Numbered from the stretch's first letter, positions 386-53,697 are shown. The stretch: DNA of 64,000 nucleotides from Candidatus Onthomorpha sp. (GCA_045590015.1 JAZNQE010000025.1:57970-121969); one strand, 5' to 3'. The notes: generated from the letters alone by a model not told the origin. A program made the numbers and translations.

Positions 386-416
386 GGGAGAAGCCATTCG
401 GCTTCTCCCTTTTTTG
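386..416 (+). terminator. rho-independent terminator
   Basis: GGGAGAAGCC-attc-GGCTTCTCCC followed by TTTTTT. Confidence 0.85.
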
Positions 417-519
417 TTTCTTGAAATCCCGAAAATAACTCTTTATTTCATTTTTCTGAAATCAAGTTTCGCTCGAACGAAATCAAGAAACAATTTACTG
501 AAATAAAGAATTATTTTTG
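413..519. repeat. 21-bp repeat family, locus 1 (2 forward + 3 reverse units, near-palindromic)
   Basis: TTGTTTCTTGAAATC ... CTGAAATCAAG ... GAAATCAAGAAACAA ... CTGAAATAAAGAATT. Confidence 0.7.
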
Positions 520-663
520 CCTATTCAAGATACTGTAAATCAAAAGCGTATTTTGCGGGTTTTAATCACTGAATTGCTATGAGGAAACAAAACTTAGAAA
601 ACTGCTTTCGTCGTTTACTTTTGCTTTAATCCTAAAAATATTTATTTTTTCCTTTATAATTCT

Positions 664-695
664 TTTGAATAATTAAAATATTGTTCATATATTTG
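664..695 (+). promoter_or_regulatory. Bacteroidota sigma-A type promoter (-33 TTTG / -7 TAtaTTTG)
   Basis: TTTG at 664-667, a 20-nt spacer, and TATATTTG at 688-695. About 170 nt upstream of the 867 start. Confidence 0.55.
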
Positions 696-866
696 CAAAG
701 TCGAAATCTCTCAAACGCTATGAACACACATTCTATTCAAATACTCGGAAAGAATAATTTGAGCCTGTAAGGCTGTTTGCTTTCTATTCCCTTGTGCGAA
801 CAGCAGAAAAATAAATCCAAACAAGGATTGTAGATAATAACTTTTTTAACCAAACAAGTGATAACA

Positions 867-2249
867 ATGAAAAAGAAAATTTTTACACGGTTTTATATGC
901 TTGCAATGTTGATACTATTTGCCACTTCTTCGTTGCAGGCACAGATTTGGACAAATAGTCAAAGTTTGATGATGAATACAGATGTTGTTGTAGATTTACA
1001 GGCACAAAAAGTGCAGGAATATGGAGATAAATATTTAATTACTATCAGCAAAAAAACTGATTCATCTAATTATTGTTTTTCTTCTTGGATAAATGGAAGC
1101 AACGTTGTACATAACTCTTTTTTGAATACAAGTGATATTACGATTAATGATTTTACTATTTTAGGAGATTCTTTGTATTTTTGTGGAAACAGAAAGGTGT
1201 CTCAGAACTTAACCTTAGGAATATTGGGTAGGTTTAATATAAATGACTTTTTGGATGATGGTAATTTTGGTTATAATTTTGCATATCTTGCAGATACAGA
1301 GAATTTAACTAAATTAGTCGCATATTATACACAAGGAGATACAGTTTGTCTTATGGCTATAGGACATGATACAATTAGTGATACTACAATAGGAAGAATA
1401 ACTCTGTTGAAATTCGAAACATCTAGTACAAATCCTGATTATGAGATAATTAAGTGCCCATTTGTTTCTTATACACAGAAAGAAGTAATGCACGATATTA
1501 GTTTGGTGGATAATGAAATTATAACTCTTAGTCATATTCACCCCACAAATATGTATGTATTAAGATATTTTAAAAGAGAATCTTCATTTGATAACACATA
1601 CAACGTTTATTATACGTTCCCTAATTTACAGTTTAATGTGTCTTCTGATGTCTATGAGTTCCCTCTTCATTTTACGAATATATCGGATTTAAAAAATGCT
1701 GTATGTGTTTCCATAATAAAAAACCAAGAATATTTTACCATGGTGAATATCTTAAAGAATAGTTCTGACTATGTTTTTTCCACCCAGCTCGTTCTGCATA
1801 AAGAAAAATTAAATAAAGCATTGGAAATGGATTATTCTGTTGATAATAAAGAGATTTTGCTTTTGAATAATAATTACTCAGGGCAACAAATGTACCAACC
1901 AATGGTGCATTTAGATCCAGAATCTGTGACAAATTACTATGCCATAGAAGAGATCTTTGATAAACCGAATCAATTAAATCATTTTTTTATAATCCCTAAT
2001 GGTAAATATGCCGTTGCAGGAGTTAGACCTCTATCTCAAACTTCCGGAGAACAATTGCTTTCTGTAAAAGACATCAATCCTCTGGAAAACGATTGTGTTA
2101 GTATGTTTGATAAAGAAATAGATGTAATTCATGTTCCAGATGGCAATTGGAATAATATATCTCTGTTGTATTTACAATATGGGGGAGCTTGGAATTCGGG
2201 GGGAGCATTTGATTCTTCTGAGCCTATTAATGTTTATTGTGTTGATTAA
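867..2249 (+). CDS. hypothetical secreted protein (signal peptide, no recognisable domain, no T9SS CTD)
   Basis: Start moved to Met4 of ORF 858..2249, giving the signal peptide MKKKIFTRFYMLAMLILFATSSLQAQ. Lies 21 nt upstream of the next cargo gene. Confidence 0.6.
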   Translation: MKKKIFTRFYMLAMLILFATSSLQAQIWTNSQSLMMNTDVVVDLQAQKVQEYGDKYLITISKKTDSSNYCFSSWINGSNVVHNSFLNTSDITINDFTILGDSLYFCGNRKVSQNLTLGILGRFNINDFLDDGNFGYNFAYLADTENLTKLVAYYTQGDTVCLMAIGHDTISDTTIGRITLLKFETSSTNPDYEIIKCPFVSYTQKEVMHDISLVDNEIITLSHIHPTNMYVLRYFKRESSFDNTYNVYYTFPNLQFNVSSDVYEFPLHFTNISDLKNAVCVSIIKNQEYFTMVNILKNSSDYVFSTQLVLHKEKLNKALEMDYSVDNKEILLLNNNYSGQQMYQPMVHLDPESVTNYYAIEEIFDKPNQLNHFFIIPNGKYAVAGVRPLSQTSGEQLLSVKDINPLENDCVSMFDKEIDVIHVPDGNWNNISLLYLQYGGAWNSGGAFDSSEPINVYCVD

Positions 2250-2270
2250 TTTTTTAAATTCCTTTAACGT

Positions 2271-3470
2271 ATGAAAAATAAAGTATTAAATAAAGTTTTG
2301 ATTCTTGGAATCTTTGTATTTATATCTGTTTTTACGAAAGCACAATTAGATACGGCGTATATACAAAGTGTATATAGTAATCAGTATATTTATCCTTATC
2401 TGATGGATACAAATTACACAAGTATCAGAACATTAGCTTGTGAGCAGGCAGAGCCTATATCTTCACCGTTCGGTTTGTCAATACATAGTACAGTTAGTAA
2501 TCAACATCTTCTAACGGGCTTTGCACAGCGTTATGAAGTAACAGATAGCGTAGATATAATGGGGGTGGCATTGATGGTTCAAGGTTCAGTCGGATTAAAT
2601 AGTTGGCCGTCTCTTCTTATAATACAGGTTAGTGTATGGGATAGCACAATGACAAGCATGATATATTCACAACAATATATAGATGGGGGAATGGTAAATA
2701 ATTATCAACGACCAGCAACAACTTCTTATCCTTTTATAGAGTTTATTTTTGATGATACTTTGACCTTATACGAAGATTATCATATAGCATTTAGTTATCC
2801 TAAAAGATGTGAAGAATTTATGACATCAGTCCCTTTGTTTATGACTCTAAGTGATTATGCACTTCAAGTAGTTGACCCATATTCGGATTATTGTACTCCA
2901 TATGGGATTTGTACAAAATACAAACCGTATGTAATGTTTGGATGTGAGGGAGAAAGAAGTTGGTTACATGTTGATAGTGTTACTTATCAAGGTTCACAAA
3001 ACTATCACAAGATTGCAAGATATCAAAATTATCAAGAGAATTTAATATATCCGGATCTTCCTGTTTGTGATTCTGTTGTTTACAAAGCGATTGGCATTTG
3101 TCCTATCAAGGCTTTGGAAAACTCAATTATAACAGATAACGATTCGACATCAACAGGTGGTGGCTCAACAGGCACAGGTGATGATACGACTTCAACGGGT
3201 GACGGTTCGCAAGATAGTTATATAGCAACGGTGTTGGCAGATAAGGACATAGAACTTTATCCGAATCCTGCCGATGAAGTTTTGAATATACGTTCTGACT
3301 ATAACATAACGGAGATTGAGGTTATCGATGCGATGAATCGTTTGATCGAGCATTGGGAACTTAACTCGAGAGAATTGACTCTTGATGTCGCAAGCTATAA
3401 ATCGGGAACATATTTCATCATAATCAAAACAGACAAAGGCTCATTAACGAAGAAATTCATCGTAAGATAG
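2271..3470 (+). CDS. hypothetical T9SS cargo protein with C-terminal sorting domain
   Basis: Signal peptide, a Thr/Gly/Ser/Asp linker (TDNDSTSTGGGSTGTGDDTTSTGDGS), then the CTD LYPNPADEVLNIRS...GTYFIIIKTDKGSLTKKFIVR. A terminator follows. Confidence 0.75.
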   Translation: MKNKVLNKVLILGIFVFISVFTKAQLDTAYIQSVYSNQYIYPYLMDTNYTSIRTLACEQAEPISSPFGLSIHSTVSNQHLLTGFAQRYEVTDSVDIMGVALMVQGSVGLNSWPSLLIIQVSVWDSTMTSMIYSQQYIDGGMVNNYQRPATTSYPFIEFIFDDTLTLYEDYHIAFSYPKRCEEFMTSVPLFMTLSDYALQVVDPYSDYCTPYGICTKYKPYVMFGCEGERSWLHVDSVTYQGSQNYHKIARYQNYQENLIYPDLPVCDSVVYKAIGICPIKALENSIITDNDSTSTGGGSTGTGDDTTSTGDGSQDSYIATVLADKDIELYPNPADEVLNIRSDYNITEIEVIDAMNRLIEHWELNSRELTLDVASYKSGTYFIIIKTDKGSLTKKFIVR

Positions 3471-3495
3471 AACCAAAACAAAGATAAAAAGAAAA

Positions 3496-3524
3496 GGAGA
3501 TGCAAAACAGCGTCTCCTTTTTTA
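3496..3524 (+). terminator. rho-independent terminator
   Basis: GGAGATGC-aaaaca-GCGTCTCC followed by TTTTTT. Confidence 0.8.
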
Positions 3525-3540: not shown

Positions 3541-3622
3541 AAAACGAATCTTTGTTTGAGCAAATTCTTTCTTTGTTTTATTTTCCTGAAATCAAGAAAC
3601 AGAAAATTGTTTCTTTGATTAG
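3541..3622. repeat. 21-bp repeat family, locus 2
   Basis: CGAATCTTTGTTTGAG, AATTCTTTCTTTGTTTTA, CTGAAATCAAGAAACAG, AATTGTTTCTTTGATTAG. Confidence 0.7.
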
Positions 3623-3652
3623 AGTCTTGGTAATCAGTTTAAGCATTTGTTG

Positions 3653-3933: not shown

Positions 3934-4800
3934 TTAGTATTCCCACATATCTTCTTCCATATTGAACAATAGTTCTTTTATTCTCTCGGATTCTGCCAAA
4001 GCGTCAGCTCCTTGAAGGTAGTCGTTTATGGAACGATTGAATGTGTTTGTCGCTCTTATTATGTAGCTGTCGAAGATTCTTTTCTGGAATACATCATCAT
4101 AAGAACGTCTTGCCTTATCGTTTTGAGGATTATAAACTTCTGAATTCGCAAGCAACAATCTCACTTCCGGATCGTTGTATCTTATCCAACCCAACGCCAA
4201 AGTTTGAACGTCTCCTTCAGACTTTTCATAAGAAGCAACCAATGAAAATCCTATTATTCTCACATCCTCAACTGTTCTATTCTTATCAAAGAACCAATCT
4301 TCTTTTATACGAAGTTTTTCAGCACTTTCAAAGTTTGCAGGAACGAAAATTGTAGTGTCTCTTGTGATTTCCATTCCGTCAACATCGTAGTCAATCAAAG
4401 TTTCCACTCTTGTCGTACCGAACTTGTCTTTATACTCTGTCCAATTGGTTATCGGTTGAGTAAACATATCATCTTCGTATGCTGTGATACGTCCTTCGGT
4501 CAAAGCTTCATCCAATATCGTAGTAATATTCTTTCTTCCTTGATCCGGAACAAGAGGATAGTAGAAAACTTGATTCATCTTTTCTTTGAAATCAATGACT
4601 CTCCATACTCTGTATGACCAAACAACATCGTCTTCTCTCACATAAGGATATTCAAACGGTTTCTTTCCATCCGGATAAGCGTCTGAACTCTTTACATAAA
4701 ATCCATCAAGATTTTCTTCCGGTTCTTCCATAACCTGTGCGTTCAAATTAAACGTTCCGCACAAGATAATACCCAATACTAATAATCCAAGCTTTCTCAT
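3934..4800 (-). CDS. porN: T9SS ring protein PorN/GldN
   Basis: 288 aa with a signal peptide. Last gene of the conserved porP-K-L-M-N order, with GldN-like sequence as I recall it. A strong terminator lies downstream. Confidence 0.8.
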   Translation of the reverse strand: MRKLGLLVLGIILCGTFNLNAQVMEEPEENLDGFYVKSSDAYPDGKKPFEYPYVREDDVVWSYRVWRVIDFKEKMNQVFYYPLVPDQGRKNITTILDEALTEGRITAYEDDMFTQPITNWTEYKDKFGTTRVETLIDYDVDGMEITRDTTIFVPANFESAEKLRIKEDWFFDKNRTVEDVRIIGFSLVASYEKSEGDVQTLALGWIRYNDPEVRLLLANSEVYNPQNDKARRSYDDVFQKRIFDSYIIRATNTFNRSINDYLQGADALAESERIKELLFNMEEDMWEY

Positions 4801-4827
4801 ATCGCTATACTTTTTATTTTGTCTTTA

Positions 4828-6423
4828 CTATTGTATGGTGAAAATCATCTGAGGGTTGCTAACAGCCTTTTCGCCATCAGGTCCTTTTGCTCTGATATTT
4901 TCAATATACACCTTGTTTCCTCTTCTCAATTTACTCAATTTTGCTTTCATCTCTGCGTTAAACTGACTTCCTGTCGCTTGAATTGGAGCTTGAGCATCTC
5001 CTCCTGTGTTAAACGACATACTGAATGAAGTTACATTATATTTAACAGGGAAATCAAATCCTTCCATCGATACACGCAATCCTCCTTGAGTAAGAAGAGA
5101 TTCTTTAGGTATTCTTCCACCGGTGTAAGTTCCGACCATGGCAGTCGGTTTTGGTATTGCCTTACATCTGAACTCCATTGTTCCCATGTTCATAGTCTTT
5201 CCACTCATGGTAGCAGATACACTGATAGTTGCTTTACCTTGAGACTTAACCGTTGCTAAGTATTCTCCGTCTTTAACTTTCTTCAATACTATGCCGGCTC
5301 CCGTAGCTGTCACATTAACATCCTTAGAGTTTGCTCCTGGAACTGATACTGAAATAGGGTTATCAACACCAATATAAAGAACGTTCATCTTGGTTGGAGA
5401 GATTGTTGCAGATGGTGCAGCAACAAAGTATTCCAATTCGAAATCATAAGGAACAGGGCCACTATCCTTTTTAACGAACAATGTTCCATTAAACTTTTGA
5501 TTTCCTAAAGCTCCTGCAGGGAATTTCAACTTCAACATACCGGAATCTCCAACATATTCTTGTCCGCGTACTTGTCCTGTCAATTCACTTCTTGAATCGT
5601 ATGCAGCAACAAACACTTCAGCCTCATATTGTCCTCCTTGTATTATATAAGTTGATTTTGGAACAACTTTCGCCACAACAGTATTGAACTTAAAGTCATC
5701 TGCCGATACAGCTGAGTATAAGTGATTAATCAAATCGACTTCCGCATTTTGAATTTCAGATTTGAACTTGTTCAAAAGCACCATATCTGCAAGTGTAATC
5801 GTATGGAAGAAGTTGTACATCTGCCAATTTAGTTCGTCTCCTGCAGCATTACGGAATGGTCCTTTGAAATCAATTTGCATCTTTTTCAAAGTTTCCTTGA
5901 ATGAACCGGTTGCATATTCCAACATTTCCTTTTGGTACGTTTCAATCTTCTTTCTCAATTCTATTGCCTTGCCTTTTGAACCGTCTTCACTTCCTGCCAA
6001 GAAATAGTTCGTCGGAGCAGAATATTCGTCTTTCTTAACTACTGCATCAAATCCCTTTTCATCCAATAGTTTCTTCGCTTCAGCCACTCCTCCTGGAGTT
6101 CCTTCGACTACAACAAACAATTCATATTTCATATTGTCGATATATTCAACAATGGCCTTAGTCTTCTTGCGAACTTCTTGTGCCTTTGCCCAATTATCGC
6201 CAACCTTTCCAGGATCTTGCTTATAAGAATTTTCAAAAATAGTATATGCACTTTCTGCCTTTCCCATCAGCAGTTTATTTGTTACTTCCATGCTGTCACC
6301 GACCGTAACGAATGCCTGTAATATCTCGGCTGACACGTTCAACGCCAACATCGCCGTGTAAACCAAGTACATCATTGAGATCATTCGCTGCCTCGGCGTT
6401 TCGGGACAATTCGTAGCACCCAT
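4828..6423 (-). CDS. porM: T9SS motor/periplasmic shaft protein PorM/GldM
   Basis: The N-terminus PRQRMISMMYLVYTAMLALNVS matches the conserved GldM anchor motif (RQKMINLMYLVF-AMLALN). 531 aa. Confidence 0.9.
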   Translation of the reverse strand: MGATNCPETPRQRMISMMYLVYTAMLALNVSAEILQAFVTVGDSMEVTNKLLMGKAESAYTIFENSYKQDPGKVGDNWAKAQEVRKKTKAIVEYIDNMKYELFVVVEGTPGGVAEAKKLLDEKGFDAVVKKDEYSAPTNYFLAGSEDGSKGKAIELRKKIETYQKEMLEYATGSFKETLKKMQIDFKGPFRNAAGDELNWQMYNFFHTITLADMVLLNKFKSEIQNAEVDLINHLYSAVSADDFKFNTVVAKVVPKSTYIIQGGQYEAEVFVAAYDSRSELTGQVRGQEYVGDSGMLKLKFPAGALGNQKFNGTLFVKKDSGPVPYDFELEYFVAAPSATISPTKMNVLYIGVDNPISVSVPGANSKDVNVTATGAGIVLKKVKDGEYLATVKSQGKATISVSATMSGKTMNMGTMEFRCKAIPKPTAMVGTYTGGRIPKESLLTQGGLRVSMEGFDFPVKYNVTSFSMSFNTGGDAQAPIQATGSQFNAEMKAKLSKLRRGNKVYIENIRAKGPDGEKAVSNPQMIFTIQ

Positions 6424-6456
6424 AATCTATATTCTTTGTTATTTAACTTGTTTTAC

Positions 6457-7428
6457 TTATGCCTTTGTTTGCATTGCTGCAAGCATGTTACCATAAATAT
6501 CGTTCAATGCACCAACTTTCTTAGACAAAGCATTAACTTGCTCTTTGTACTTCAATACGTTCTCTGCTGTATCTGCAAAATTTACAACCAAGTTGTCTAT
6601 TCTTTCTTGAACAACTTTACTTGCTTCCAATTGAGAAGAAGAATTTTGAATTTGCATTTCATACAAAGCATTTATTGAAGAAAGGCTTGATGCCATCTTT
6701 TTCAATTCATCCAAATAAGACGCATCTCCTGCTGACAAAGTATTGGCAGTTTCTTTGTAAATGTTAGCCAATGTAGATACAGCTGAAGTTGCTTCTTGTA
6801 CAGAAGAAAGATATTCACCTGAAACCAACAAATCTTTGTTCAAGTTATCTGCAGTTTTCTTGTATGCTTCAGATAACTCCCCTGCTGCAGATGCGGCATT
6901 ACTCAAGTTTTGGTTAAATCTTTCTGAAGAAACAGCTGCTCCCGCAACATCATTCAATTGATTAGTTGTATCAGCTAAATTCTTCAATCCCTTACCCAAA
7001 CTTTCAATTAACTCAGGTCCGATCTTCGCATCAGCCAACATCTTATCTAAATCTTGAGTACCAGAGTATCCACCGCCAACAACAACTCCACCTGGGACAC
7101 CAACAACTCCTGCTTCTACTTCTGCTTCTTTCTTTTTAGACTTTTTATCTTTCTTTTCTTTCTTTTCCTCTGCGTGAATATCATCCATTCCTGCTAATTC
7201 AGGGAATACCAAACTCCAATCGTAAGTTACGTGCAAAGGTTCAAATGCCGACACAAAGAAAATAACAGCCTCAATACCCATACCAATAATCAACATGATT
7301 GTACCGCCAGGCCAGTGGTTAATCTTAAACAACGCACCAACGATAACGACTGATGCACCTATACCGTACAATTTAGCTGATACTTCTTTGTAAAGTTTAC
7401 TTCTGACAAAATTATCTACCCAACCCAT
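6457..7428 (-). CDS. porL: T9SS motor protein PorL/GldL
   Basis: The N-terminus KLYGIGASVVIVGALFKINHWPGG...IEAVIFFVSAFEP matches the conserved GldL two-TM region. Contains a Lys/Glu-rich and Gly/Val-rich low-complexity insert. Confidence 0.9.
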   Translation of the reverse strand: MGWVDNFVRSKLYKEVSAKLYGIGASVVIVGALFKINHWPGGTIMLIIGMGIEAVIFFVSAFEPLHVTYDWSLVFPELAGMDDIHAEEKKEKKDKKSKKKEAEVEAGVVGVPGGVVVGGGYSGTQDLDKMLADAKIGPELIESLGKGLKNLADTTNQLNDVAGAAVSSERFNQNLSNAASAAGELSEAYKKTADNLNKDLLVSGEYLSSVQEATSAVSTLANIYKETANTLSAGDASYLDELKKMASSLSSINALYEMQIQNSSSQLEASKVVQERIDNLVVNFADTAENVLKYKEQVNALSKKVGALNDIYGNMLAAMQTKA

Positions 7429-7472
7429 AATTTAATAGTTTTTAATTTGTTTATTTAATATTGTTAATTATC

Positions 7473-8846
7473 TTAATTGTTTCTATATACATTTGAAGAT
7501 GTTTTAGGGTTATCTCCTCTTACTCTTCCTAAGTATGATTGAACGCAACGGAATCCGATATAACTCTTTCCTGAATCTTGATACTCATAAGAACGAGTTG
7601 CTGTTTGGATAAAGAATTTTTGATCTTTCCATGAACCACCTCTCACCGTTTTTCTCTTCATTTGAGGTGCATCATCTTCTGTAGCATTGTATATATTTAC
7701 TTGGTTCAAATCGTGTGCAAAGTTATAAGCAGCTTCGTTATAAGCATCTTCACACCACTCTGCAACATTTCCTGCCATATCATACAATCCGAATCCGTTA
7801 GGTGCATAGTGTGCCACCAAGATAGGAGTTACACCACCATCATCACCATAATTTCCTCTCAAAGGTTTATAGTTTGCAATGAAACAGCCATTTCCGTTTC
7901 TTACATACGGACCTCCCCATGGATAAGGTGCTCCATCAACACCACCTCTTGCTGCATACTCCCACTCTGCTTCGGTTGGCAAACGGAAATCTTCCATTCT
8001 CGCATATTCTTGCTTTGATAAATAATCATTCATCATTATAGTTCTCCATACAGAGAATGCCTTAGCTTGACGATAAGAAACGCCAACAACAGGATAGTTA
8101 TCATAACGAGGATGACTGAAATAAGAACGAGTGGCAGCATCGTTATAGGAATAAGCATAGTCATGCATCCAACACAAGGTGTCAGGATATACGTTTATTA
8201 CTTCTTTTCTAAAGAATTTATCTCTGTTTTTCAATGTTCCGGGTCTTGAAGCGAAAGAAGAGCCTCTATATTCTTCTTGAGCTTGTGAGCCATAATCTTT
8301 TTTACTTGCTGCTCTAAGGTCGATCCAATAATATTCGAAATTCAACTTTCTTGCATCTATCTGCATATTGTTATAGAATCTCTCATCAACCGGCACAAAC
8401 AATTCTGACAAAGCTTCTCTTTCATCAGCATTCTTCATACTCCAATCTATCTTTTCTTTCCAATTGATCAAAGGTGTTTCCAAGTCTTCTCCCCATTGAT
8501 CTGCTTCAATAAGATATCTCTCAGGATCATTCTCTCCTAACAATCTGTATGCTATTGAATCTCTTACCCAATCAACAAATTGTCTGTATTCATTATTTGT
8601 AATCTCTGTTTCATCCATCCAAAACGATTGAACTTGCACCGTTTTTGGCTGATGCTCATACAATTTATACAAATCCTCATCAGCAGCACCCATTAAAAAA
8701 CTACCTTGCGGTATATCAACCATTCCATATGGTTGCATATCCAAAAAATCAGGTCTGTCTTGAACACCAATCAGCTCACCCTTGTCTGAGCTTCCACAAC
8801 TTATTGCAAGCAATGCAACTGAAATTAACAAAACTATACGTCTCAT
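7473..8846 (-). CDS. porK: T9SS lipoprotein PorK/GldK (FGE/SUMF1-type fold)
   Basis: Lipobox LLAISCGS, a formylglycine-generating-enzyme-like domain (WEYAARGG, RGGSWKD), and its position in the operon. Confidence 0.9.
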   Translation of the reverse strand: MRRIVLLISVALLAISCGSSDKGELIGVQDRPDFLDMQPYGMVDIPQGSFLMGAADEDLYKLYEHQPKTVQVQSFWMDETEITNNEYRQFVDWVRDSIAYRLLGENDPERYLIEADQWGEDLETPLINWKEKIDWSMKNADEREALSELFVPVDERFYNNMQIDARKLNFEYYWIDLRAASKKDYGSQAQEEYRGSSFASRPGTLKNRDKFFRKEVINVYPDTLCWMHDYAYSYNDAATRSYFSHPRYDNYPVVGVSYRQAKAFSVWRTIMMNDYLSKQEYARMEDFRLPTEAEWEYAARGGVDGAPYPWGGPYVRNGNGCFIANYKPLRGNYGDDGGVTPILVAHYAPNGFGLYDMAGNVAEWCEDAYNEAAYNFAHDLNQVNIYNATEDDAPQMKRKTVRGGSWKDQKFFIQTATRSYEYQDSGKSYIGFRCVQSYLGRVRGDNPKTSSNVYRNN

Positions 8847-8922
8847 AAAACCAATTTATTTTTCAAATTCTAATGTTACTTTATTTCGTTTACGCAATTC
8901 TTTGAAAGAATGTTTCAAATCC

Positions 8923-9984
8923 CTACATCCTTCTGGTGTTTCTATAAATTGTCGGAGGTTTTGGAGGATTCTCTATCTTAAAACAGAATCTTGCGAACAA
9001 TTCAAGCGATCCCATTGACTGAGTAGATATTCTTGAAGTAGGAATATCATAAGAAAAACCGAGTTTAAAGTCACCCAATGCAACGCCACCTAATAAGATT
9101 ATCGCATCTTGTACTCTATACGTTACTCCTCCCCAGAACTTATGTTCCCATTCAAGTATCGCAGAAGCATCCAACTGATATGCCGATTTAGATAAAAAAT
9201 CTGTCTTCAATAAAGCCGATGGTAATACTCTCAAAGAAGGATACGATGGAACAGTCCATTCATAACCTGCCAGAACATAGTAAAATCGTCTGTTATCCCA
9301 TTTCAACTTTTCGCTTTCTGCCTGCATCAACTTAGAGGAAGAAATACCTATATAAAGTTGTCCAGGAATCTGATAATAAATACCTGCACCTAAATCAAAC
9401 AAAAAGTCCTCCTGATTTGTAGGATCTGACAATACAGGATCATGAGAAGTTCCTATTTGATCATCTTCTGTATACTGATCAGCTCCGACCAATCTTGACA
9501 TATCCAATGAAGAACTAAATAGTTGGGCTTCAACTCCTATCGCAAGATTTCCTCGAGGAAATTGTATCCTGAATGCGTAATCAAATTTTGCATGCAAATT
9601 ATTCCAAAAACCAATCTTATCAGAAATAATTGTAGCCCCAATTCCACCATGCAAAAAACGCACTGGCATATCGAATGACAGATTCATCGTTTCTCCTCCT
9701 GAAGCCCCTGTATTTTGCCCCATAGCATCAGTGAATGTTATTCCCATCCATTGACTACGATAAAAACCTGTAAAACAAATAGCTCCATTACTTCCAGCAT
9801 AGCCAGGATTGTACGATAATCTGTTAAACATATATTGAGAGAACTGTGGTTCCTGCTGTGCCATAGTTTTTTCGCACAAAGACAAAACCAAACCTAGCGA
9901 TATTACAACAAATAATACGCCGCATTTTAAATTGACTCTCAATATATTACTCAGTTTGTACATAAATTGTACCAATATACTCAT
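8923..9984 (-). CDS. porP: T9SS membrane protein PorP/SprF family
   Basis: Hallmark motif QQEPQFSQYMFNRLSYNPGYAG after the signal region, with a beta-barrel-like remainder. First gene of the por operon. The true start could be an internal Met. Confidence 0.85.
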   Translation of the reverse strand: MSILVQFMYKLSNILRVNLKCGVLFVVISLGLVLSLCEKTMAQQEPQFSQYMFNRLSYNPGYAGSNGAICFTGFYRSQWMGITFTDAMGQNTGASGGETMNLSFDMPVRFLHGGIGATIISDKIGFWNNLHAKFDYAFRIQFPRGNLAIGVEAQLFSSSLDMSRLVGADQYTEDDQIGTSHDPVLSDPTNQEDFLFDLGAGIYYQIPGQLYIGISSSKLMQAESEKLKWDNRRFYYVLAGYEWTVPSYPSLRVLPSALLKTDFLSKSAYQLDASAILEWEHKFWGGVTYRVQDAIILLGGVALGDFKLGFSYDIPTSRISTQSMGSLELFARFCFKIENPPKPPTIYRNTRRM

Positions 9985-10047
9985 AACCTATTTTTTTTCT
10001 CTACAACCTGCAACTCAAGTATCTGCACAATGCACGAAGTAGCACTG

Positions 10048-10055
10048 CAAAGGTA
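10048..10055 (-). promoter_or_regulatory. -7 box TAccTTTG upstream of porP
   Basis: CAAAGGTA on the plus strand, 64 nt upstream of the porP ORF start. Confidence 0.45.
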
Positions 10056-10155
10056 ACTAAATTCTTTTTAAGAACGAAAACTTATCTCATTTTTTTATTC
10101 TTATTTCGTTTTTCAAAAACTTTAAGGACTGAAACTCAAACAATTATTATTTATA

Positions 10156-10917
10156 TCAATTATCCTTCTTTTTTATCAAATGAGCCAACGGATAGTTCTT
10201 TTTAAGAATCTGTATAGCCTCTTCTGCAGTTTCTTGAGATATAAATGGTCCTATATTTATATAGTAGAAACTTTCATTGTATACTTTTACAGCTTTAGCA
10301 AGTTTCTTATACTGTTCCGGTAATTGATGTACAATATCTTTTGCCTCCGTTTTATTTGCTGCGGTTGCCAATCTTACATAATAAGTAAACAAAAACGCCT
10401 GTTCATATTTATTTCCTTTTGCAAATATTACAGAGTCCAAATACCTATTCCTCACACTATCATTTAATTCAGCTCTATCAAACATCTCAAATAATTCATT
10501 TTGTTTTTCCCACAACTCCATATACTCTTGACCAAGAATCTCAACTTTCACTTTAGCTGTACCTGTCTTATGTAATAATATCCTTTTAGCTGCCAACAAC
10601 GATAAATCGATTACTCCACTACGAGGGCAACGATCATTTACCTTAACCAAAACAGAACGTCCGTTTTTCAAATGAGTTACTCTTACTAACGTATTCAATG
10701 GTAGCGTTTTGTGAGCAGCAGTATATTTCTTCTGAGAAAAAATTTCTCCTGATGAAGTTTTTCTGTTTTCAAACCTATCATGATAGTATGTCGCACTTGC
10801 ATTAAAGCCTTTCTTTTCCTGTGAAAAAACATTACCCCTGAGAAAAGAAAATACGAGAACTAAAGACAAAATACCGAATACTTTATTTACCACGCTTTTG
10901 CATCTTCGTGAAACCAT
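10156..10917 (-). CDS. rlpA: septal ring lytic transglycosylase RlpA-family protein (DPBB + SPOR domains)
   Basis: DPBB core ASATYYHDRFENRKTSSGE...VLVKVNDRCP and a C-terminal SPOR-like domain. Start moved to Met21 to remove most of the overlap with kdsC. Confidence 0.7.
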   Translation of the reverse strand: MVSRRCKSVVNKVFGILSLVLVFSFLRGNVFSQEKKGFNASATYYHDRFENRKTSSGEIFSQKKYTAAHKTLPLNTLVRVTHLKNGRSVLVKVNDRCPRSGVIDLSLLAAKRILLHKTGTAKVKVEILGQEYMELWEKQNELFEMFDRAELNDSVRNRYLDSVIFAKGNKYEQAFLFTYYVRLATAANKTEAKDIVHQLPEQYKKLAKAVKVYNESFYYINIGPFISQETAEEAIQILKKNYPLAHLIKKKDN

Positions 10918-14470: not shown

Positions 14471-14478
14471 CAAAGATA
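14471..14478 (-). promoter_or_regulatory. -7 box TAtcTTTG upstream of lptB
   Basis: CAAAGATA on the plus strand, 21 nt upstream of the ATG at 14450. Confidence 0.5.
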
Positions 14479-14686
14479 CAACAAAGAAACGATAAAATGA
14501 ATTCAAGAAAGAAAAGAATAGTTCTTGAATCCGTTTCGCTGAATCTTGAATTCATTTTTCCACCATCATAATGCACTTTTTCAACAACCCATTCTATAGA
14601 AACATATCGAAATCTCAACAAGCCGAACAACAAACCATTTAATTGAAATCTTGTTATTTTTTAACCGACATTTTAGACAAAAACAT

Positions 14687-16944: not shown

Positions 16945-16966
16945 CATATTTCAAAATATAAACGGT

Positions 16967-17200
16967 ATGAAAAGAGGAAAAGCAATATTTGTTTGCAATG
17001 ACTGCAAGAAGGTTTTTGTAGGCGATGACTTAGAATATCATGCCACCGTTTTGTCTCATCCTTTAGAGTGTCCGAAATGTGGAAGTATGCACACAAAACC
17101 TATATTTGCAAGCAAGGTTATTTACAAAAAAATTTGGAGAAAAAAAATAAAGAAAAATTGTAATCAAGAAATACTCTCCCCCAAAAAAGAACGGGCTTAA
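16967..17200 (+). CDS. small zinc-ribbon protein with basic tail
   Basis: CNDC...CPKC four-Cys pattern and a Lys-rich C-terminus. The stop lies inside the terminator stem. Confidence 0.45.
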   Translation: MKRGKAIFVCNDCKKVFVGDDLEYHATVLSHPLECPKCGSMHTKPIFASKVIYKKIWRKKIKKNCNQEILSPKKERA

Positions 17201-17232
17201 CAAGATAAAATCCTGCAAGCCCGTTCTCTTAT
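17189..17232. terminator. bidirectional terminator between the zinc-ribbon gene and the EF-G paralogue
   Basis: GAACGGGCTT ... AAGCCCGTTC 10-bp stem, with an A6 run upstream and T-rich sequence downstream. Confidence 0.7.
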
Positions 17233-39330: not shown

Positions 39331-39351
39331 TTCTTATACAGTTTTTTTCGT

Positions 39352-39570
39352 TTATAATTTTGCTTTGTAAACTGTTATAACTCCATCAGGGCAAACCATA
39401 CCACAAGATGCGCATCCGATACAATCGCCATTTACCATTTCGGCATAATTATAACCTTTTACATTCACATTTTTTGATAGAGCGATAACTTGTTTAGGAC
39501 ATACGGAAACACATACTCCACATCCCTTGCAACGCTCAACATCAATTACAATTGCTCCTTTTATTGCCAT
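39352..39570 (-). CDS. korD: 4Fe-4S dicluster ferredoxin (delta subunit of the oxidoreductase)
   Basis: Two CxxCxxCxxxCP motifs in 72 aa. First gene of the operon. Confidence 0.8.
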   Translation of the reverse strand: MAIKGAIVIDVERCKGCGVCVSVCPKQVIALSKNVNVKGYNYAEMVNGDCIGCASCGMVCPDGVITVYKAKL

Positions 39571-39615
39571 TGCTGTTTGTTTTTAATGAATAATTTACTT
39601 CTTTATTTCGAACTC

Positions 39616-39623
39616 CAAAATTA
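39616..39623 (-). promoter_or_regulatory. -7 box TAatTTTG upstream of korD
   Basis: CAAAATTA on the plus strand, 46 nt upstream of the ATG at 39570. Confidence 0.5.
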
Positions 39624-39745
39624 TGAATTTATTTTGATATAGCAAAGAAATTTGCATTAAATATTATTTTATCCTTTTTCAAAAACAAAGAACTAATTGC
39701 TTTGTTGGTTGTTGTATATCCAAAAAACAACAAAAATTATATATC

Positions 39746-41780: not shown

Positions 41781-44483
41781 TTATATGTTCCGCAATGCTT
41801 TGACCAAAGTAGAGAAAACTTCTCCTCTATGTTCGAAATTGCGGAACATATCATAACTGCTGGCTGCCGGAGAGAGCAAACAAATCTTTCCTTTCTCAGT
41901 ATTTTCTGCACACCATTTCACAATAGCCTCGTAATCATCACAAACAAAGGCATTGTAATCAAGTCCTGATTCACTCAAGATTTCGTTCATTCTCTTGCCT
42001 GCCTGACCTACAAAAACAATGTTCTGAACAGAAAAGCGTTTTAGTTCTTTTGCAAGAATGCTATAGTCGATTCCACGATCTTTTCCTCCAAGAATAAGAG
42101 TCTGAACATCTTTCAATGCTTCCAGTGCTGCAATTGTCGCTTCAGGAATAGTACTTATGCTATCGTTGTAATAACTTACTCCATCAATTACCCCAATCGG
42201 TTGAAGTCTGTGTGCCAAAGGCTCGAAGTTTATCATACTTTCAATTGCCTTTTCTTTATCCAATCCCAATATCTCAACAACTTTCATTGCCGCAACCGCA
42301 TTCGATTTGTTATGTTCACCTTTCAAATATTTCAATTCGGGGTAATGATACCCTTCCTTTACGAATCCTATAAGCGTAGAGGGCAAATCATTGGCTTGAA
42401 TCAGGTTTTGTATTCTCTTGTCATCAGAATCAAACACAAAATAATCCGACTCGCTTTGTTTGCTTGCAAGATTGAATTTTGCGCTCCAATATTCTGCACA
42501 ATCACCAAAATGATCCAAATGTTCCTCATAAAGATTCAATAAAACGGATATATGAGGCGACCGTTTGATAAATTGCAATTGATGAGCTGACATTTCGGCA
42601 ACGATTATCGTATCTTTGTTTATCGAATCTATTGTCTCGAAAAGTGGCACACCTATATTACCTGCAAAGACCACATTCGGAGTTTGATCTTTTATTATCT
42701 TATAAATCAAACTACTTGTGGTACTCTTGCCTTTTGTTCCGCTTACTGCGATCGTCTGAGAGGCAAAAAGTTGAAGAAAAATATCGCTTTGAGATGTGAT
42801 TTTATCCTTCGGAACAAACGGAATATTCTTATAAGGTATTCCCGGGGCTTTTATGAATAGCGTTCTATCATTCAGATTATCAACACCAAGCAAACAGTAT
42901 TCTAAATCTTGAAAAGATTTTTTTGTTTCTTTGTTTTGAGAAATTGTTTCTTGATTTCGCAAAATCAGTTCTTTGTTTCCGTCAGCAACCACAAGAGAAC
43001 AATCTGCTCCGATTCGTTCAAGCAGTTTCACAGTTGAGATTCCCTCTCTTCCATATCCCAACACAGCAACTTTCTCCGAAGCAAACATACGTTTTAATTC
43101 AGCCTTGACAATGGCAGCGTATGAATCGGCAAAGATCTCGAAGTCTCTTGGCAAAAGGTTATGCTGATTTTGCAAGGTGAACAAATTATGCGAGTCGGTC
43201 ATATCAAGACAAGATTGAGAAAACGGAAGTTGTAACCACTCTTTCAACAGTATTTCTTTTTCAGAACCAGCCTCTCGTTTTATTCTCATCGCAATCGCCA
43301 TATTTACCTCATCGATAGTCCCTACGCATTCGAAAGGCTTTTGCTCTCCAACCCCACACAATTCAAACAAATAGTCTTTCAGATTTTCGTCTTCAAAGAG
43401 ATTCTTTCCGAATACTTCTGACAATAGTTTCGTTTCAACAAATGGAGACAAGATAATAAAGGCAAAAAGACACTTAGGGCAGTTCCCACACCATATATCT
43501 TGTTTTGAACCTGCGTTACAGCTTTTGAAAACGTGATGATATTTTAATTCGGAAAATAATTTCGCTATATGCAGTTCTGATAACGGGCGAAGGAAACTGA
43601 AATAGTTAAAGTCTGTTGATATGTATTTTGCAACGTATGAGCGGAAATCATTTTCAAATTCAAGGCTTTTTGAATATTGATGATTGATTTTTTCTCCCTT
43701 TACGGTAGATTCGTTTGCTGAACTTTCATTTGAAAGAGCTATGTGTTTGCGTTTTGAAAAGGCTGCTGTTAAAAGACTTGTAAATGCCAACATCGCAGAA
43801 AAAGGCGTATGTCCATTCAAATATCCTTCGGCGTTTAACTCCAATAAATGAGAGTCTATCGTTCTTCTGTCTTCTAAAATTTCATCTCTCTGAATCTTTG
43901 CTTGCTTACAACAATCCAAAGTCGCTCCTCTCGGATTTATTATAAACGTTCTGACATCTCTTCCTGCTCCATAAAGCAAATCAAGGCTCACAACAGAATC
44001 CTTACCTCCCCCGATCGGAACAATGTATTTGTCTTCCAGATCGAATGCACAAGGTTGCAATTCTTTATCTGTATCGAATGCGAAATTAACAAAACTATTT
44101 ATATCTGTTTTTATGCCGTTTATGAAAAAGAATTCACCCAATCCATAGAAGTAAATCTTTCTCCAAAATGCCAATTGTTCACTATCAAGTTTGTAATCGT
44201 GTATCAGAATAGTAGGAGAACAGAACGCTTTCCAATAACTCACCAATTCTATCATTCCGATATTGAAAACAAGTAAATCCAATTGTGCTTTCGATAGATG
44301 ATTGAACGAATAAAATTCTTTGGCCTTGAATGTATGAGTTGGAGTAAAAGAATGGTTCCTACAATAAAAGTGAAATTTCAGTACAAAATCACCTTCTACG
44401 ATATCATATTCAAATCCCCTGTATTCAAAGCAAGGATAACTTTCTCTCAATTGATTATATTTTTCTTGATTTTTCACATTCAT
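41781..44483 (-). CDS. bifunctional fusion: N-terminal PP-loop-type ATP-utilising domain (MurL-like candidate) + C-terminal MurD-type UDP-MurNAc-L-Ala:glutamate ligase
   Basis: The N-part (aa 1-465) has YIVPIGGGKDSVVSL and a CNAGSKQDIWCGNCPKC Cys cluster. The C-part starts at internal Met466 (MFASEKVAVLGYG) with SGTKGKST, NDSISTIPEA, LGGKDRG and LLSPAASSYDMFRNFEHRG. Confidence 0.6.
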   Translation of the reverse strand: MNVKNQEKYNQLRESYPCFEYRGFEYDIVEGDFVLKFHFYCRNHSFTPTHTFKAKEFYSFNHLSKAQLDLLVFNIGMIELVSYWKAFCSPTILIHDYKLDSEQLAFWRKIYFYGLGEFFFINGIKTDINSFVNFAFDTDKELQPCAFDLEDKYIVPIGGGKDSVVSLDLLYGAGRDVRTFIINPRGATLDCCKQAKIQRDEILEDRRTIDSHLLELNAEGYLNGHTPFSAMLAFTSLLTAAFSKRKHIALSNESSANESTVKGEKINHQYSKSLEFENDFRSYVAKYISTDFNYFSFLRPLSELHIAKLFSELKYHHVFKSCNAGSKQDIWCGNCPKCLFAFIILSPFVETKLLSEVFGKNLFEDENLKDYLFELCGVGEQKPFECVGTIDEVNMAIAMRIKREAGSEKEILLKEWLQLPFSQSCLDMTDSHNLFTLQNQHNLLPRDFEIFADSYAAIVKAELKRMFASEKVAVLGYGREGISTVKLLERIGADCSLVVADGNKELILRNQETISQNKETKKSFQDLEYCLLGVDNLNDRTLFIKAPGIPYKNIPFVPKDKITSQSDIFLQLFASQTIAVSGTKGKSTTSSLIYKIIKDQTPNVVFAGNIGVPLFETIDSINKDTIIVAEMSAHQLQFIKRSPHISVLLNLYEEHLDHFGDCAEYWSAKFNLASKQSESDYFVFDSDDKRIQNLIQANDLPSTLIGFVKEGYHYPELKYLKGEHNKSNAVAAMKVVEILGLDKEKAIESMINFEPLAHRLQPIGVIDGVSYYNDSISTIPEATIAALEALKDVQTLILGGKDRGIDYSILAKELKRFSVQNIVFVGQAGKRMNEILSESGLDYNAFVCDDYEAIVKWCAENTEKGKICLLSPAASSYDMFRNFEHRGEVFSTLVKALRNI
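42915..42982. repeat. 21-bp repeat family, locus 9 (inside CDS 41781..44483, in frame)
   Basis: TTTTTGTTTCTTTGTTTTGAG AAATTGTTTCTTGATTTCGC AAAATCAGTTCTTTGTTTCCGT. Confidence 0.8.
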
Positions 44484-46984: not shown

Positions 46985-47125
46985 CTTATTTCTTAAATCA
47001 ATCTACTGAAACTTTATATGGATAAAATAATTCTTGATTTCAGTATTACTGATTCTTGATTCTAATTTTTCCTTTCTTGATTTTGACGAAATGATTCTTG
47101 ATATCACTTCTTTATTTCTTCGATT
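46985..47125. repeat. 21-bp repeat family, locus 10 (4-5 forward units)
   Basis: AAAATAATTCTTGATTTCAG TATTACTGATTCTTGATTCTAA TTTTTCCTTTCTTGATTTTGAC GAAATGATTCTTGATATCAC. Confidence 0.8.
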
Positions 47126-47161
47126 CGATATTTGCTTTTCAACAACGAAATCTTCAATGCT

Positions 47162-47204
47162 AAAAAAGGGCATGCCAAACTGGTTTTTGACACGCCCTTT
47201 TTGC
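47162..47204. terminator. bidirectional terminator downstream of tsf
   Basis: AAGGGCATG ... CACGCCCTT stem flanked by A6 and T5 runs. Confidence 0.7.
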
Positions 47205-52088: not shown

Positions 52089-52156
52089 GACAATCTATTT
52101 TTTATGTTTTGAAGTGCAAAAATATTGTTTTTTTTTCTAATCACAAAATTTATTTC

Positions 52157-52164
52157 TAATTTTG
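52157..52164 (+). promoter_or_regulatory. -7 box TAatTTTG upstream of mreC
   Basis: 21 nt upstream of the ATG at 52185. Confidence 0.5.
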
Positions 52165-52184
52165 CAAAGAATTTGAGTGATGGT

Positions 52185-53018
52185 ATGAACAATCTTATAC
52201 GTTTTTTACAAAAATATTATTACATCTTCTTGTTTCTGATACTCGAAGGTTTTGCGGTGTATTTCATTTCCTGCAATTCGTTTTATCAAGGCTCTGCAAT
52301 AACGAGCTTCGCCAATAGTGTTGCCGGTGGAGTTTATGGAGGGGTTGATGCAGTATCAAAATATTTTTCGCTTGCTTCTGTCAACGAAGAATTGGTAAAG
52401 GAAAACGCAAGACTCCGAGAACAAATCGAATCATCTTATGTGCGTTATACCGACAGGGTGATGATAAAAGATGATACGATTTACAAACAACAATTCTCTT
52501 TTGTTGAAGCCAAAGTCATATCAAAATCAATTAATAAACGCAACAATTATTTCATGCTCAACAAGGGGCTCTCGAGCGGAATCTTGAAAGATATGAGTGT
52601 GATAGCACCAAACGGTATAGTTGGAGTAGTTGTAAACAGTACAGAGAATTTTTCTCTTGTCATGACCGTTCTGCACCAAGACAGCAAGATTGCGGTAAAG
52701 AACAAAAGAACCAGTGCAAGCGGCACTCTTGTATGGAATGGAGGGAATTATGCAACTGGACAAGTTATCGACATTCCTTCATCTATGCCTCTTAAAGTCG
52801 GAGACACAATAACGACAAGCGGCTTTTCAAGAAATTTCCCTGAAGGAATCGAAGTCGGATACATAAAGAAATTCAGCAAAGATAGCGGAAGTGGTTTTTA
52901 CAATGTGGAAATAAAATACAGCACCGACTACAATAAATTAGGATATGTTTATGTGGTGAAGAACTTCTTTAAGTTGGAACAAGAGCAATTGGAAAGGGGG
53001 ATAAAGGAAGATGAGTAA
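52185..53018 (+). CDS. mreC: rod shape-determining protein MreC
   Basis: N-terminal TM, coiled coil (LVKENARLREQIE) and beta-barrel domains (NGIVGVV, SGTLVWNG, GDTITTSG). Start follows a TAatTTTG box. Confidence 0.8.
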   Translation: MNNLIRFLQKYYYIFLFLILEGFAVYFISCNSFYQGSAITSFANSVAGGVYGGVDAVSKYFSLASVNEELVKENARLREQIESSYVRYTDRVMIKDDTIYKQQFSFVEAKVISKSINKRNNYFMLNKGLSSGILKDMSVIAPNGIVGVVVNSTENFSLVMTVLHQDSKIAVKNKRTSASGTLVWNGGNYATGQVIDIPSSMPLKVGDTITTSGFSRNFPEGIEVGYIKKFSKDSGSGFYNVEIKYSTDYNKLGYVYVVKNFFKLEQEQLERGIKEDE

Positions 53019-53526
53019 AAGCATATTACTGACAGCTTTGAGATTTATTTTATTGCTAACAGTTCAAGTATTGATACTGAACAATATCAATTTGTTTGGA
53101 TTGGTTGAACCGTTATTATATGTATGGTTTATTTTGTTGTTACCTCTCCGCACACCTAAATGGGCGGTTTTATTGTTATCGTTTCTAATGGGATTCTGTG
53201 TTGATATTTTCAGCGGACAAGTAGGTTTTCATACAGCGGTCAGTGTGTTTACGGGATTCATCCGTCCTTTGTTTCTTGGTGCTTTGCTGACAAACTCTCA
53301 CAATGAAGCGCACGACACTCCTACATCTGCAAACATGGGCTTTATGCCTTATTTCGGTTACGTATCAATCCTTATGATTATCCACACATTTACCCTTATT
53401 GCGATAGAGTCTTTGCGTTGGAGCGAAATACTTCAATATCTTCTTCGTTCGAGTTTGAGTTCGCTTGCAGGCATAGTGCTTATACTTATCTGCGATATGG
53501 TTTTCTTCCCTTCATCGAAAAATTAA
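53011..53526 (+). CDS. mreD: rod shape-determining protein MreD
   Basis: 171-aa polytopic membrane protein overlapping the mreC stop by 8 nt, the usual mreCD arrangement. Confidence 0.7.
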   Translation: MSKSILLTALRFILLLTVQVLILNNINLFGLVEPLLYVWFILLLPLRTPKWAVLLLSFLMGFCVDIFSGQVGFHTAVSVFTGFIRPLFLGALLTNSHNEAHDTPTSANMGFMPYFGYVSILMIIHTFTLIAIESLRWSEILQYLLRSSLSSLAGIVLILICDMVFFPSSKN

Positions 53527-53617
53527 CACAACTATAAGACAATAAGACTACAAGACAACGAGATAGTTGTCATTTTATAGTCTTATGGACTTGTTCTCTT
53601 TCAGACTCCTTGACCCC

Positions 53618-53697
53618 GAGTCTTTGTTTTAGAAAACTGATTCTTGATTTCGGCAGATTATTTCTTGATTTCGATAGAGCGATTCTTTGTTTTATTT
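53618..53697. repeat. 21-bp repeat family, locus 11
   Basis: GAGTCTTTGTTTTAG AAAACTGATTCTTGATTTCGG CAGATTATTTCTTGATTTCGA TAGAGCGATTCTTTGTTTTAT. Confidence 0.85.

Follow-up and report, generated by a model that had tools for sequence, protein, structure and literature searches.

The 64,000-nucleotide stretch described here (the window), from the chromosome of Candidatus Onthomorpha sp., a gut-dwelling member of the Bacteroidales that is uncultured, carries twelve arrays of a 21-bp repeat unit, scattered between, and in one case inside, ordinary genes. Within the arrays the units follow one another in a register of two helical turns irrespective of their orientation, four being the most common number. 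The arrays recur at the same positions in related species, their informative bases are conserved, and breakpoints of rearrangements fall in them. The most likely explanation, to which we assign a probability of about 0.45, is that they constitute a lineage-specific, genome-wide family of protein-recognition arrays, which would resemble REP/BIME repeats in character and plasmid iterons in geometry. Eleven of the arrays had been pointed out in an earlier account made from the sequence by itself (the sequence-only reading), which described them as a dispersed family of ~21-bp repeats and proposed either a phased protein-binding array or a minisatellite carried by a MITE, or miniature inverted-repeat transposable element.

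Anatomy and phasing of the arrays

The repeat is directly visible when the eleven originally listed loci are laid out as 21-bp rows. The unit consists of a 13-bp core, G-W3-C-(TTGA/TTTG)-W3-C, and an 8-bp spacer. Two forms of the core exist, G-TTTC-TTGA-TTTC and G-TTTC-TTTG-TTTC, with almost invariant TCTT and TTT positions; the spacer between the cores is itself semi-conserved (AGRAAAWT), and the units are contiguous. The absence of unique spacers rejects a CRISPR, as had already been concluded in the sequence-only reading.

The units were combined into a position weight matrix (PWM) with AAATTGTTTCTTGATTTCAGT as its consensus and an information content of 17.5 bits. It matches the window 54 times at 11 bits or more, against 5.9 matches expected from shuffles, and these matches form ten arrays of at least three units and twelve of at least two, compared with 0 and 0.01 in 100 shuffles, respectively. 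Within the window, the motif is far more frequent and clustered than in the shuffles. All eleven loci of the sequence-only reading contain phased units, and the twelfth array, at 14474-14557, is new. The 9-mer CTTGATTTC/GAAATCAAG is present in 14 exact copies, where 1.69 are expected and the maximum in 100 shuffles was 4. This agrees with the original count made by eye, but the accompanying claim that all copies lie inside arrays does not hold: 13 are in the listed arrays and one is at 20017 in the serpin-like gene.

Of 255 center-to-center distances between adjacent units, 227 are exactly 21 bp and another 16 exactly 42 bp. In the window, 16 of the 17 junctions between units of the same orientation and all 12 junctions between units of opposite orientation (5/5 for +- and 7/7 for -+) measure exactly 21 bp. 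The orientation calls are unambiguous, with a median difference of 41.5 bits between the two strands at the same center, and both orientations do occur within one locus as originally reported (++--- in locus 1, -+-+ in locus 7). The period had been equated with two helical turns, and the actual register is stricter than that statement required. As the units are spaced by exactly two turns, all sites face one side of the helix, whichever way each of them is oriented.

The modal array size is four units, which is found in 9 of the 12 window arrays, in keeping with the three to six copies per locus given originally, and in 53 of 111 arrays from the window and its relatives combined; the relatives' loci were picked for two same-orientation units, and their size and orientation statistics are biased accordingly. 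The orientation strings of the window arrays, given below in array order, look unordered. Among the 111 arrays there are at least 45 combinations of core variant and orientation, the sole trend being a mild preference for TTTG at the outer positions. Hence, the two core variants named in the sequence-only reading both exist but do not strictly alternate. A master-copy hypothesis was rejected on the same grounds: with so diverse a set of unit patterns, the arrays are not copies of a few master elements.

The arrays of the window, with unit orientations in brackets, are as follows.

412-516, array 1: five in-phase units (++---), abutting the terminator hairpin 384-415, upstream of the gene 858-2249.
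3542-3625, array 2: four units (++-+), ~20 bp past the bidirectional terminator 3486-3523, between a convergent type IX secretion system (T9SS) cargo gene and gldN.
14474-14557, the array added here: four units (--++), between a divergent ABC-ATPase gene and a function-unknown gene, masked by an over-extended open reading frame (ORF).
20626-20709, array 3: four units (++++), between a divergent serpin-like gene and recX.
25121-25204, array 4: four units in a palindromic arrangement (++--), between divergent genes, at the left border of a three-gene block.
27887-27970, array 5: four units (+-+-), between convergent genes, at the right border of the same block.
32214-32297, array 6: four units (-++-), about 200-280 bp upstream of the start of an M23 peptidase gene.
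35451-35534, array 7: four units (-+-+), downstream of an acyltransferase gene.
36652-36735, array 8: four units (+--+), two of them weak, between the terminator 36767-36808 and the acyltransferase promoter; it makes a false N-terminal extension of the ORF 35600-36691.
42921-42983, array 9: three units (+++), in frame in the N-terminal domain of a MurD-like ligase.
46987-47130, array 10: five clear units (+++++) plus two degenerate in-phase ones, between the tsf terminator (47162-47199) and ksgA.
53614-53714, array 11: four units (++++) after two hairpins, with a fifth core at 53702-53714, between convergent genes.
53720-53848, a second family of repeats: five palindromic 22-bp units of the form ATTACGA-N5-TCGTAAT, contiguous with array 11.

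Two of the limits given for these loci in the sequence-only reading deserve comment. Locus 6 (32168-32302) included ~45 bp that are not repeat, and locus 10 was delimited correctly if the two degenerate units are counted.

The surroundings are those of an ordinary Bacteroidales chromosome, with the gldKLMN/porP genes of type IX secretion, tsf, ksgA, pheS, pheT, fusA-like genes, mreC, mreD, dsbD, sodB, and genes for an M23 peptidase and 2-oxoacid:ferredoxin oxidoreductase. The density of arrays is ~1.9 per 10 kb. Crude ORF calls leave 19 gaps of 100 bp or more, 10 of which hold an array; two more arrays lie inside over-extended ORFs. Ten of the eleven originally listed loci are intergenic, as stated at the time; locus 9 is the one in a coding region. 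Tandem, divergent and convergent gaps are all occupied (3 of the 12 arrays lie between convergent genes), about seven arrays have a terminator-like hairpin no more than roughly 85 bp away, and several are located shortly upstream of TAnnTTTG promoter boxes of the Bacteroidetes type, the distance ranging from ~25 to ~260 bp. The variation in this distance and the arrays between convergent genes led us to reject a promoter function. The orientation of the units is unrelated to the direction of transcription, and the neighbors are ordinary housekeeping genes with no link to any gene class.

Conservation, turnover and rearrangement among relatives

In a motif scan of one genome per species, with two adjacent units as the criterion, the matches were concentrated in three Ca. 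Onthomorpha metagenome-assembled genomes and in UBA3389, UBA3388, RGIG7394, RGIG9896, STF2_138 and OH_CDB_274, with scattered single matches elsewhere; the family is present in at least nine related species genomes. The array rate in the relatives' loci is 1.3-2.6 per 10 kb, a range that is inflated since each locus was chosen for containing a match. The viral contigs scanned had no genuine arrays, their sole multi-unit match (L207) being a perfect coding repeat in a 522-aa ORF, and distant relatives with a DsbD identity below 60% had no comparable arrays.

The window is ~95% identical to contigs of Bacteroidales bacterium UBA3389, in which arrays 3 (100% identity) and 4 are identical and arrays 6 and 11 nearly so. 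Array 5 has one more unit in UBA3389, and as the indel is exactly 21 bp, turnover took place by a whole unit. At a larger distance, the flank of array 2 in Ca. Onthomorpha L042 has an upstream gene of 76% identity, a changed terminator stem and a different downstream gene order. The four-unit array is nevertheless kept after the terminator in the same ++-+ pattern, several of its units having switched between the two core forms. Strong arrays also stay in place in other species pairs of 83-92% identity. In total, every strong array compared, in genomes that are 76-97% identical, was at the same position in both partners without filled-site/empty-site polymorphism, and the differences were indels of units and recombination between arrays. 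This pattern is not one that recent transposition would produce. Of the two kinds of variation envisaged in the sequence-only reading for orthologous regions, a change of unit number was found, and presence/absence of strong arrays was not. Array 10 is 99% identical in five metagenome strains with an unchanged copy number, but these sequences are too close to be informative.

In 40 orthologous units, substitutions affected 1 of 200 high-information positions compared with 63 of 640 other positions (Fisher p = 4e-7), and the two-base GA/TG core switch was seen in 8 of the 40 units. This distribution points to constraint on the putative recognition bases combined with replacement of whole units.

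More distant relatives were gathered in a metagenome scan with DsbD at identities from 97% to 42%. The window-type motif was found only at DsbD identities of at least 92% (L098, L133) and was absent at 83% and below. The contigs L101-L103, L106 and L107 (DsbD 77-83% identical), which lack the window-type motif, have arrays of four units with a different 13-bp core, AAAACG-S-CGTTTT, which is palindromic about its central base, 8-bp spacers and a period of 21-22 bp. These sister-lineage arrays occupy equivalent positions: one of four units is found 150-250 bp upstream of the conserved M23 promoter, where the window has array 6, and another is just upstream of recX in L101/L103, where the window has array 3. 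Different as the two core types are (GTTTCTTKRTTTC versus AAAACGSCGTTTT), they share the scaffold W3-C-N3-G-W3. Arrays of L133 contain both types mixed in phase. The window itself has a core of the sister-lineage type, AAAACGCCATTTC, which is the fifth core of array 11 and is placed exactly one 21-bp step past the fourth unit.

Tandem repeats of the relatives with at least 60% DsbD identity have periods of 21 bp in 29 arrays and 42 bp in 3, next to 19-20 bp in 1, 22 bp in 5 and 23 bp in 2, counts that include some coding repeats. We had regarded 21-bp repeats at about 1185-2566 in L156, L100 and L104 as further intergenic families and withdrew this assignment, because they are coding heptads in a 3.4-kb DUF4175 ORF. 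Mosaics of unit types also occur. Downstream of an RNase T-like gene in L111, a ~400-bp mosaic (9905-10250) built from three types of unit contains three units of one 21-bp family, four AAAAAC-S-GTTTTT cores and about seven inverted units of the first family, in this order.

Several rearrangements, among them deletion, inversion and the swapping of genes, have their breakpoints at arrays, which thereby shape genome structure. Arrays 6 and 7 flank a leucine-rich repeat (LRR)/T9SS-cargo gene (32534-34642) that is missing from L098, whose DsbD is 97% identical. In its place is a five-unit chimeric array, of which arrays 6 and 7 are the two parents: it is composed of the first two units of array 7 and the last three of array 6, the crossover being within a shared 9-bp identical core, CTTTGTTTY, between spacers that differ. 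The hexapeptide-transferase/oxidoreductase/FemAB-like block at 25290-27775, flanked by arrays 4 and 5, is missing from L101, where there is also no array. A 3-kb inversion between L106 and L107 is bounded by arrays, and between L101 and L103 a ~1-kb segment has been replaced starting inside an array, one strain's version encoding an outer-membrane beta-barrel protein.

Arrays are also found inside genes. Array 9 encodes ~21 residues, including ...LILRNQETISQNKETKKSFQD..., and the three nearest full-length homologs (53-54% identical) show a gap of exactly 21 residues at this site, which corresponds to a variable-length loop in more distant homologs. In L106/L107, SbcC contains a four-unit sister-type array in frame, in the coiled-coil part as judged from its position in the protein, and one Onthomorpha array (L024/L030) reads through as the C-terminal tail E[TI]KKEE[ST]. 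As 21 is a multiple of 3 and most frames of the unit are free of stop codons, such in-frame copies can survive in tolerant regions of proteins.

Interpretation of the arrays

In the explanation that we consider most likely, the 13-bp core and the 8-bp spacer would together form a recognition site, characterized by fixed G/C positions, A/T tracts and the scaffold W3-C-N3-G-W3. A putative sequence-specific, two-fold-symmetric DNA-binding or DNA-processing protein would bind the array co-operatively as double-stranded DNA. This protein, together with unit-by-unit copying between arrays, may keep the hundreds of arrays of a genome uniform, and the preferred core would then be free to drift between lineages. 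Arrays would persist where 63-105 extra bp can be tolerated, i.e. past terminators, upstream of promoters, in convergent gaps and, occasionally, in tolerant protein loops. As a side effect, they would serve as recombination substrates through which adjacent genes are deleted, inverted or swapped.

Recognition of double-stranded DNA by a co-operative, two-fold-symmetric protein on one face of the helix is suggested by the exact two-turn register, which holds regardless of orientation. The same kind of protein is indicated by the fixed G/C positions in A/T tracts, by the preferred four-unit size and by the conserved informative bases. The copying of units between arrays, a behavior similar to that of REP/BIME/REPIN repeats with a partner protein, is suggested by the density of the arrays, their indifference to gene class and the coexistence of families and mosaics, as well as by the in-frame copies, the unit-wise indels, the core switching and a lineage-specific consensus at conserved positions. 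The anatomy, phasing, distribution and conservation of the arrays and the breakpoints at them are shown directly, whereas the existence and nature of the partner protein are inferred from these patterns, as would be any benefit to the host, perhaps the insulation of transcription units or the organization of the nucleoid. Of the two ideas in the sequence-only reading, the phased protein-binding array is therefore the one that fits the register, the four-unit mode and the conserved informative bases.

Several observations weigh against this explanation. No binding or processing protein was identified among the window genes scanned against Pfam. As the main unit forms no hairpin palindrome and its consensus lacks a GTAG/CGTC tag, the arrays are not REP sequences in the strict sense. 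The diversity of unit patterns (at least 45 in 111 arrays) is not explained by simple copy-and-paste of whole arrays, and, given how stable array positions are, no insertion event was observed directly. The conservation test was partly conditioned on both partners still resembling the unit, the preselection of genome-scan loci for two same-orientation units affects the size and orientation statistics outside the window, and the coding-region cases rely on homologs that are only 53-54% identical, in a loop of variable length.

Unlikely, but the best of the alternatives, is that the arrays are purely cis-regulatory or architectural sites of the host, at which a chromosomal nucleoid-associated or insulator-type protein occupies four phased sites at transcription-unit borders; selection for this role would have produced and maintained the arrays, without any element-like spread. 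Such sites would account for positions that are stable between species, for the conservation of informative bases, the exact helical register and the four-unit mode in two core families, and for the placement of most arrays between a terminator and the next promoter, including the array that two lineages have upstream of the conserved M23 promoter at an equivalent distance. However, evolution in place hardly accounts for the in-frame arrays of MurD and SbcC, convergent gaps, which have no promoter, hold arrays just as often, and there is no link to gene class. Furthermore, several unrelated unit families coexist and form mosaics, and a change of the core at hundreds of sites between sister lineages needs a homogenizing copy mechanism and not selection alone.

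A bolder proposal, which strikes us as rather unlikely, treats the arrays as chromosome-wide punctuation, with a defined particle assembled on four phase-locked 13-bp sites (~84 bp) at most boundaries of transcription units. The positions of the particle would be conserved across genera, while the recognition code would have been switched between sister lineages, from GTTTC-TTK-RTTTC in one to AAAACG-S-CGTTTT in the other; mixed arrays would be the intermediates, and the partner protein is again putative. If true, this would amount to a bacterial system of insulators or boundary elements with co-evolving specificity.

The MITE idea of the sequence-only reading, i.e. selfish, non-autonomous mobile DNA of a MITE-like or REPIN-like kind without a host role and with a transposase encoded elsewhere, now appears improbable. 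High copy number, intergenic bias and lineage-restricted families are properties of such DNA, and in-frame copies inside genes and rearrangements at arrays are compatible with it. A MITE was nevertheless rejected, because the arrays have neither terminal inverted repeats nor target-site duplications nor a conserved leader or tail, and because their positions are stable between species. In 96 arrays, inverted k-mers across the flanks were at the chance level (k = 7: 4 versus 5.6 expected), as were direct k-mers between the 20-nt flanks (k = 6: 16 versus 14.7; k = 8: 0 versus 1.4), and more than ~4 bp away from the last core each flank position holds less than 0.2 bit. Strong arrays show no presence/absence polymorphism at all in species of 76-97% identity, the composition of the arrays is combinatorial rather than that of a master copy, and the informative positions are conserved, in contrast to decaying relics. 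Among the genes of the 64-kb window scanned against Pfam, which left out a few ORFs, there was no transposase, integrase or HUH-family gene; a RAYT (Y1/HUH) gene was likewise not found in this search, which was limited to the window and did not extend to whole genomes. Identity with BrickBuilt, the MITE named as the closest analog, was also rejected: its unit AGAYCATARTATCCTCTCRTRTG and terminal repeats such as GAGACCTTTGCA (PMC4596501) are unrelated to AAATTGTTTCTTGATTTCAGT, and the flanks of the arrays are unconserved.

It is very unlikely that the arrays are dedicated sites of site-specific recombination, used for inserting, excising or inverting gene cassettes and surface-protein genes in particular, even though 13-bp arms and 8-bp spacers match the geometry of loxP/FRT and some arrays have inverted neighbors. 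The cases described above could be read in this way: the single chimeric array that replaces the LRR/T9SS-cargo gene in L098, the three-gene block missing from L101, the 3-kb inversion between two arrays in L106/L107, and the outer-membrane-protein gene swapped at an array in L101/L103. However, any dispersed repeat yields such breakpoints via homologous or slipped-strand recombination, and the one resolved junction, that of L098, crosses inside the core CTTTGTTTY and not in a shared spacer. Many arrays are of a single orientation and hence have no inverted pair of arms, most arrays flank conserved housekeeping genes, and no recombinase gene was present among the scanned window genes.

Neutral slippage minisatellites, or elements acting as RNA (small RNAs or stabilizers of 3'-untranslated regions), we consider scarcely credible, in spite of indels of exactly one unit, the frequent location of arrays after terminators and the strong folding of palindromic-arrangement arrays: plain slippage was rejected as it can yield neither in-phase units of opposite orientation nor one motif shared by ~12 unlinked loci per 64 kb, and it leaves the four-unit mode unexplained, while same-orientation arrays fold no better than shuffles (z between +1.0 and +1.6 for three of the four strands examined, and -0.6 for the remaining one), only palindromic-arrangement arrays fold strongly, no structure is common to all, unit orientation ignores the direction of transcription, and there is no Rfam match at gathering thresholds in the whole window, nor a tRNA or tmRNA.

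Relation to known repeats and neighboring features

Dispersed intergenic repeats of the REP/BIME type are well studied in Proteobacteria. The REP/BIME repeats of enterobacteria and pseudomonads, with REPIN/RAYT, are similar to the arrays in that hundreds of short intergenic repeats form regular clusters in either orientation, located after terminators and between convergent genes. They likewise have a lineage-specific consensus, form mosaics of families, act as recombination substrates and persist for a long time by vertical descent. However, a REP is a G+C-rich, imperfect hairpin palindrome with, in most cases, a GTAG/CGTC tag, neither of which applies to the main unit of the arrays, and its units are ~35-40 bp long with variable linkers, as opposed to the strict 21 bp and four-unit mode found here. 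The second, 22-bp family next to array 11 (53720-53848) is palindromic, unlike the main unit. It folds as a single long hairpin (z = -8.5), and a similar array in Ca. Onthomorpha (L027, 1739-1861) is 83% identical.

Iterons of theta plasmids (pPS10, F ori2, R6K) have a comparable geometry, with 3-7 sites of 17-22 bp repeated every 21-22 bp on one face of the helix, co-operative binding by one protein and commonly four repeats. They differ in being direct repeats at a single origin beside a rep gene. The arrays have the phasing of iterons but are dispersed among housekeeping genes, about 2 per 10 kb and with units in either orientation; the window genes that were scanned included no rep gene.

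BrickBuilt of P. gingivalis (PMC4596501) is also from Bacteroidota and is a dispersed family with tandem short repeats of about two helical turns (a 23-nt minisatellite). It differs by its terminal inverted repeats, its leader and tail, a copy number of ~19, up to ~18 repeats and an unrelated unit. The NIMEs/dRS3 of Neisseria resemble the arrays as intergenic mosaics that flank variable genes and mark points of rearrangement, and Rickettsia palindromic elements (RPEs) do so by occasional in-frame insertion in protein-coding genes, but the sequences of both are unrelated and they have neither 21-bp phase-locked units nor a fixed unit number. Mycobacterial MIRUs likewise form a dispersed family of tandem repeats resembling minisatellites, which occupies many intergenic loci and varies in unit number. 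In contrast to the arrays, their units are 40-100 bp long, have one orientation relative to transcription, are located in operons and are coupled to small ORFs, none of which is seen here.

We found no catalogued family and no paper describing these arrays, either in Rfam or in a literature search, and the match to an already catalogued repeat that the sequence-only reading had allowed for did not materialize in these searches or in the comparison with BrickBuilt. What is new relative to dispersed bacterial intergenic repeats is that the units are phase-locked, that the arrays have a four-unit size and that the core has changed where positions are conserved. As the arrays are unusually regular, the presumed partner protein should be findable by pull-down or by comparing gene content with core type.

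The arrays also have practical consequences, since they corrupt ORF calling: spurious ORFs and N-terminal extensions arise, as do apparent fusions of genes. The sequence-only reading had warned of the first two, and our ORF list contains such cases at 20430-20717, 20435-20770, 32074-32343 and 27709-28617 (the last without a Pfam hit). In addition, arrays may break metagenome assemblies in this clade. The contig of the nearest MurD homolog P0001 (L178) ends 22 bp upstream of the MurD gene call, which begins just after the position of the window's array; this assembly may have broken at an array.

The ORF that contains array 9 (41781-44483, minus strand, 900 aa) joins a MurL-like epimerase (residues 13-410, NF041275) to the MurD-like ligase with no stop codon between them. 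It could be a real fusion or a pair of overlapping genes merged by the ORF call; several of its homologs also have N-terminal extensions. Seven-codon repeats seem to be common in proteins of this lineage. A 1139-aa ORF with a weak match to DUF4175 contains several different 21-bp heptad repeats (L156 701-4117, L100 818-4216, L104 803-4201), and a 21-bp coding repeat is also present in dsbD of L104/L105 (L104: 10510-10574).

Elsewhere in the window, the T9SS/gliding cluster at 3934-9984 (minus strand) is made up of gldN, three genes that are probably gldM, gldL and gldK, and porP/sprF, Pfam confirming gldN and porP/sprF only. T9SS cargo genes with Por_Secre_tail domains are located at 7-360, 2271-3470 and 32534-34642. 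The array-less gaps 16945-17248 and 39331-39745 appear, as judged from the sequence, to hold small unlisted genes, namely one for a short protein with a zinc-ribbon-like Cys-X2-Cys and a ferredoxin-like, Cys-rich ORF on the minus strand. Finally, a perfect 16-bp inverted repeat at 54228-54268 (AAACAAACGCCGATAT / ATATCGGCGTTTGTTT, with a 9-nt loop) follows just past the stop codon of the gene 54283-55389; it is probably the terminator of this gene, and its stem contains the motif AAACGCCG.

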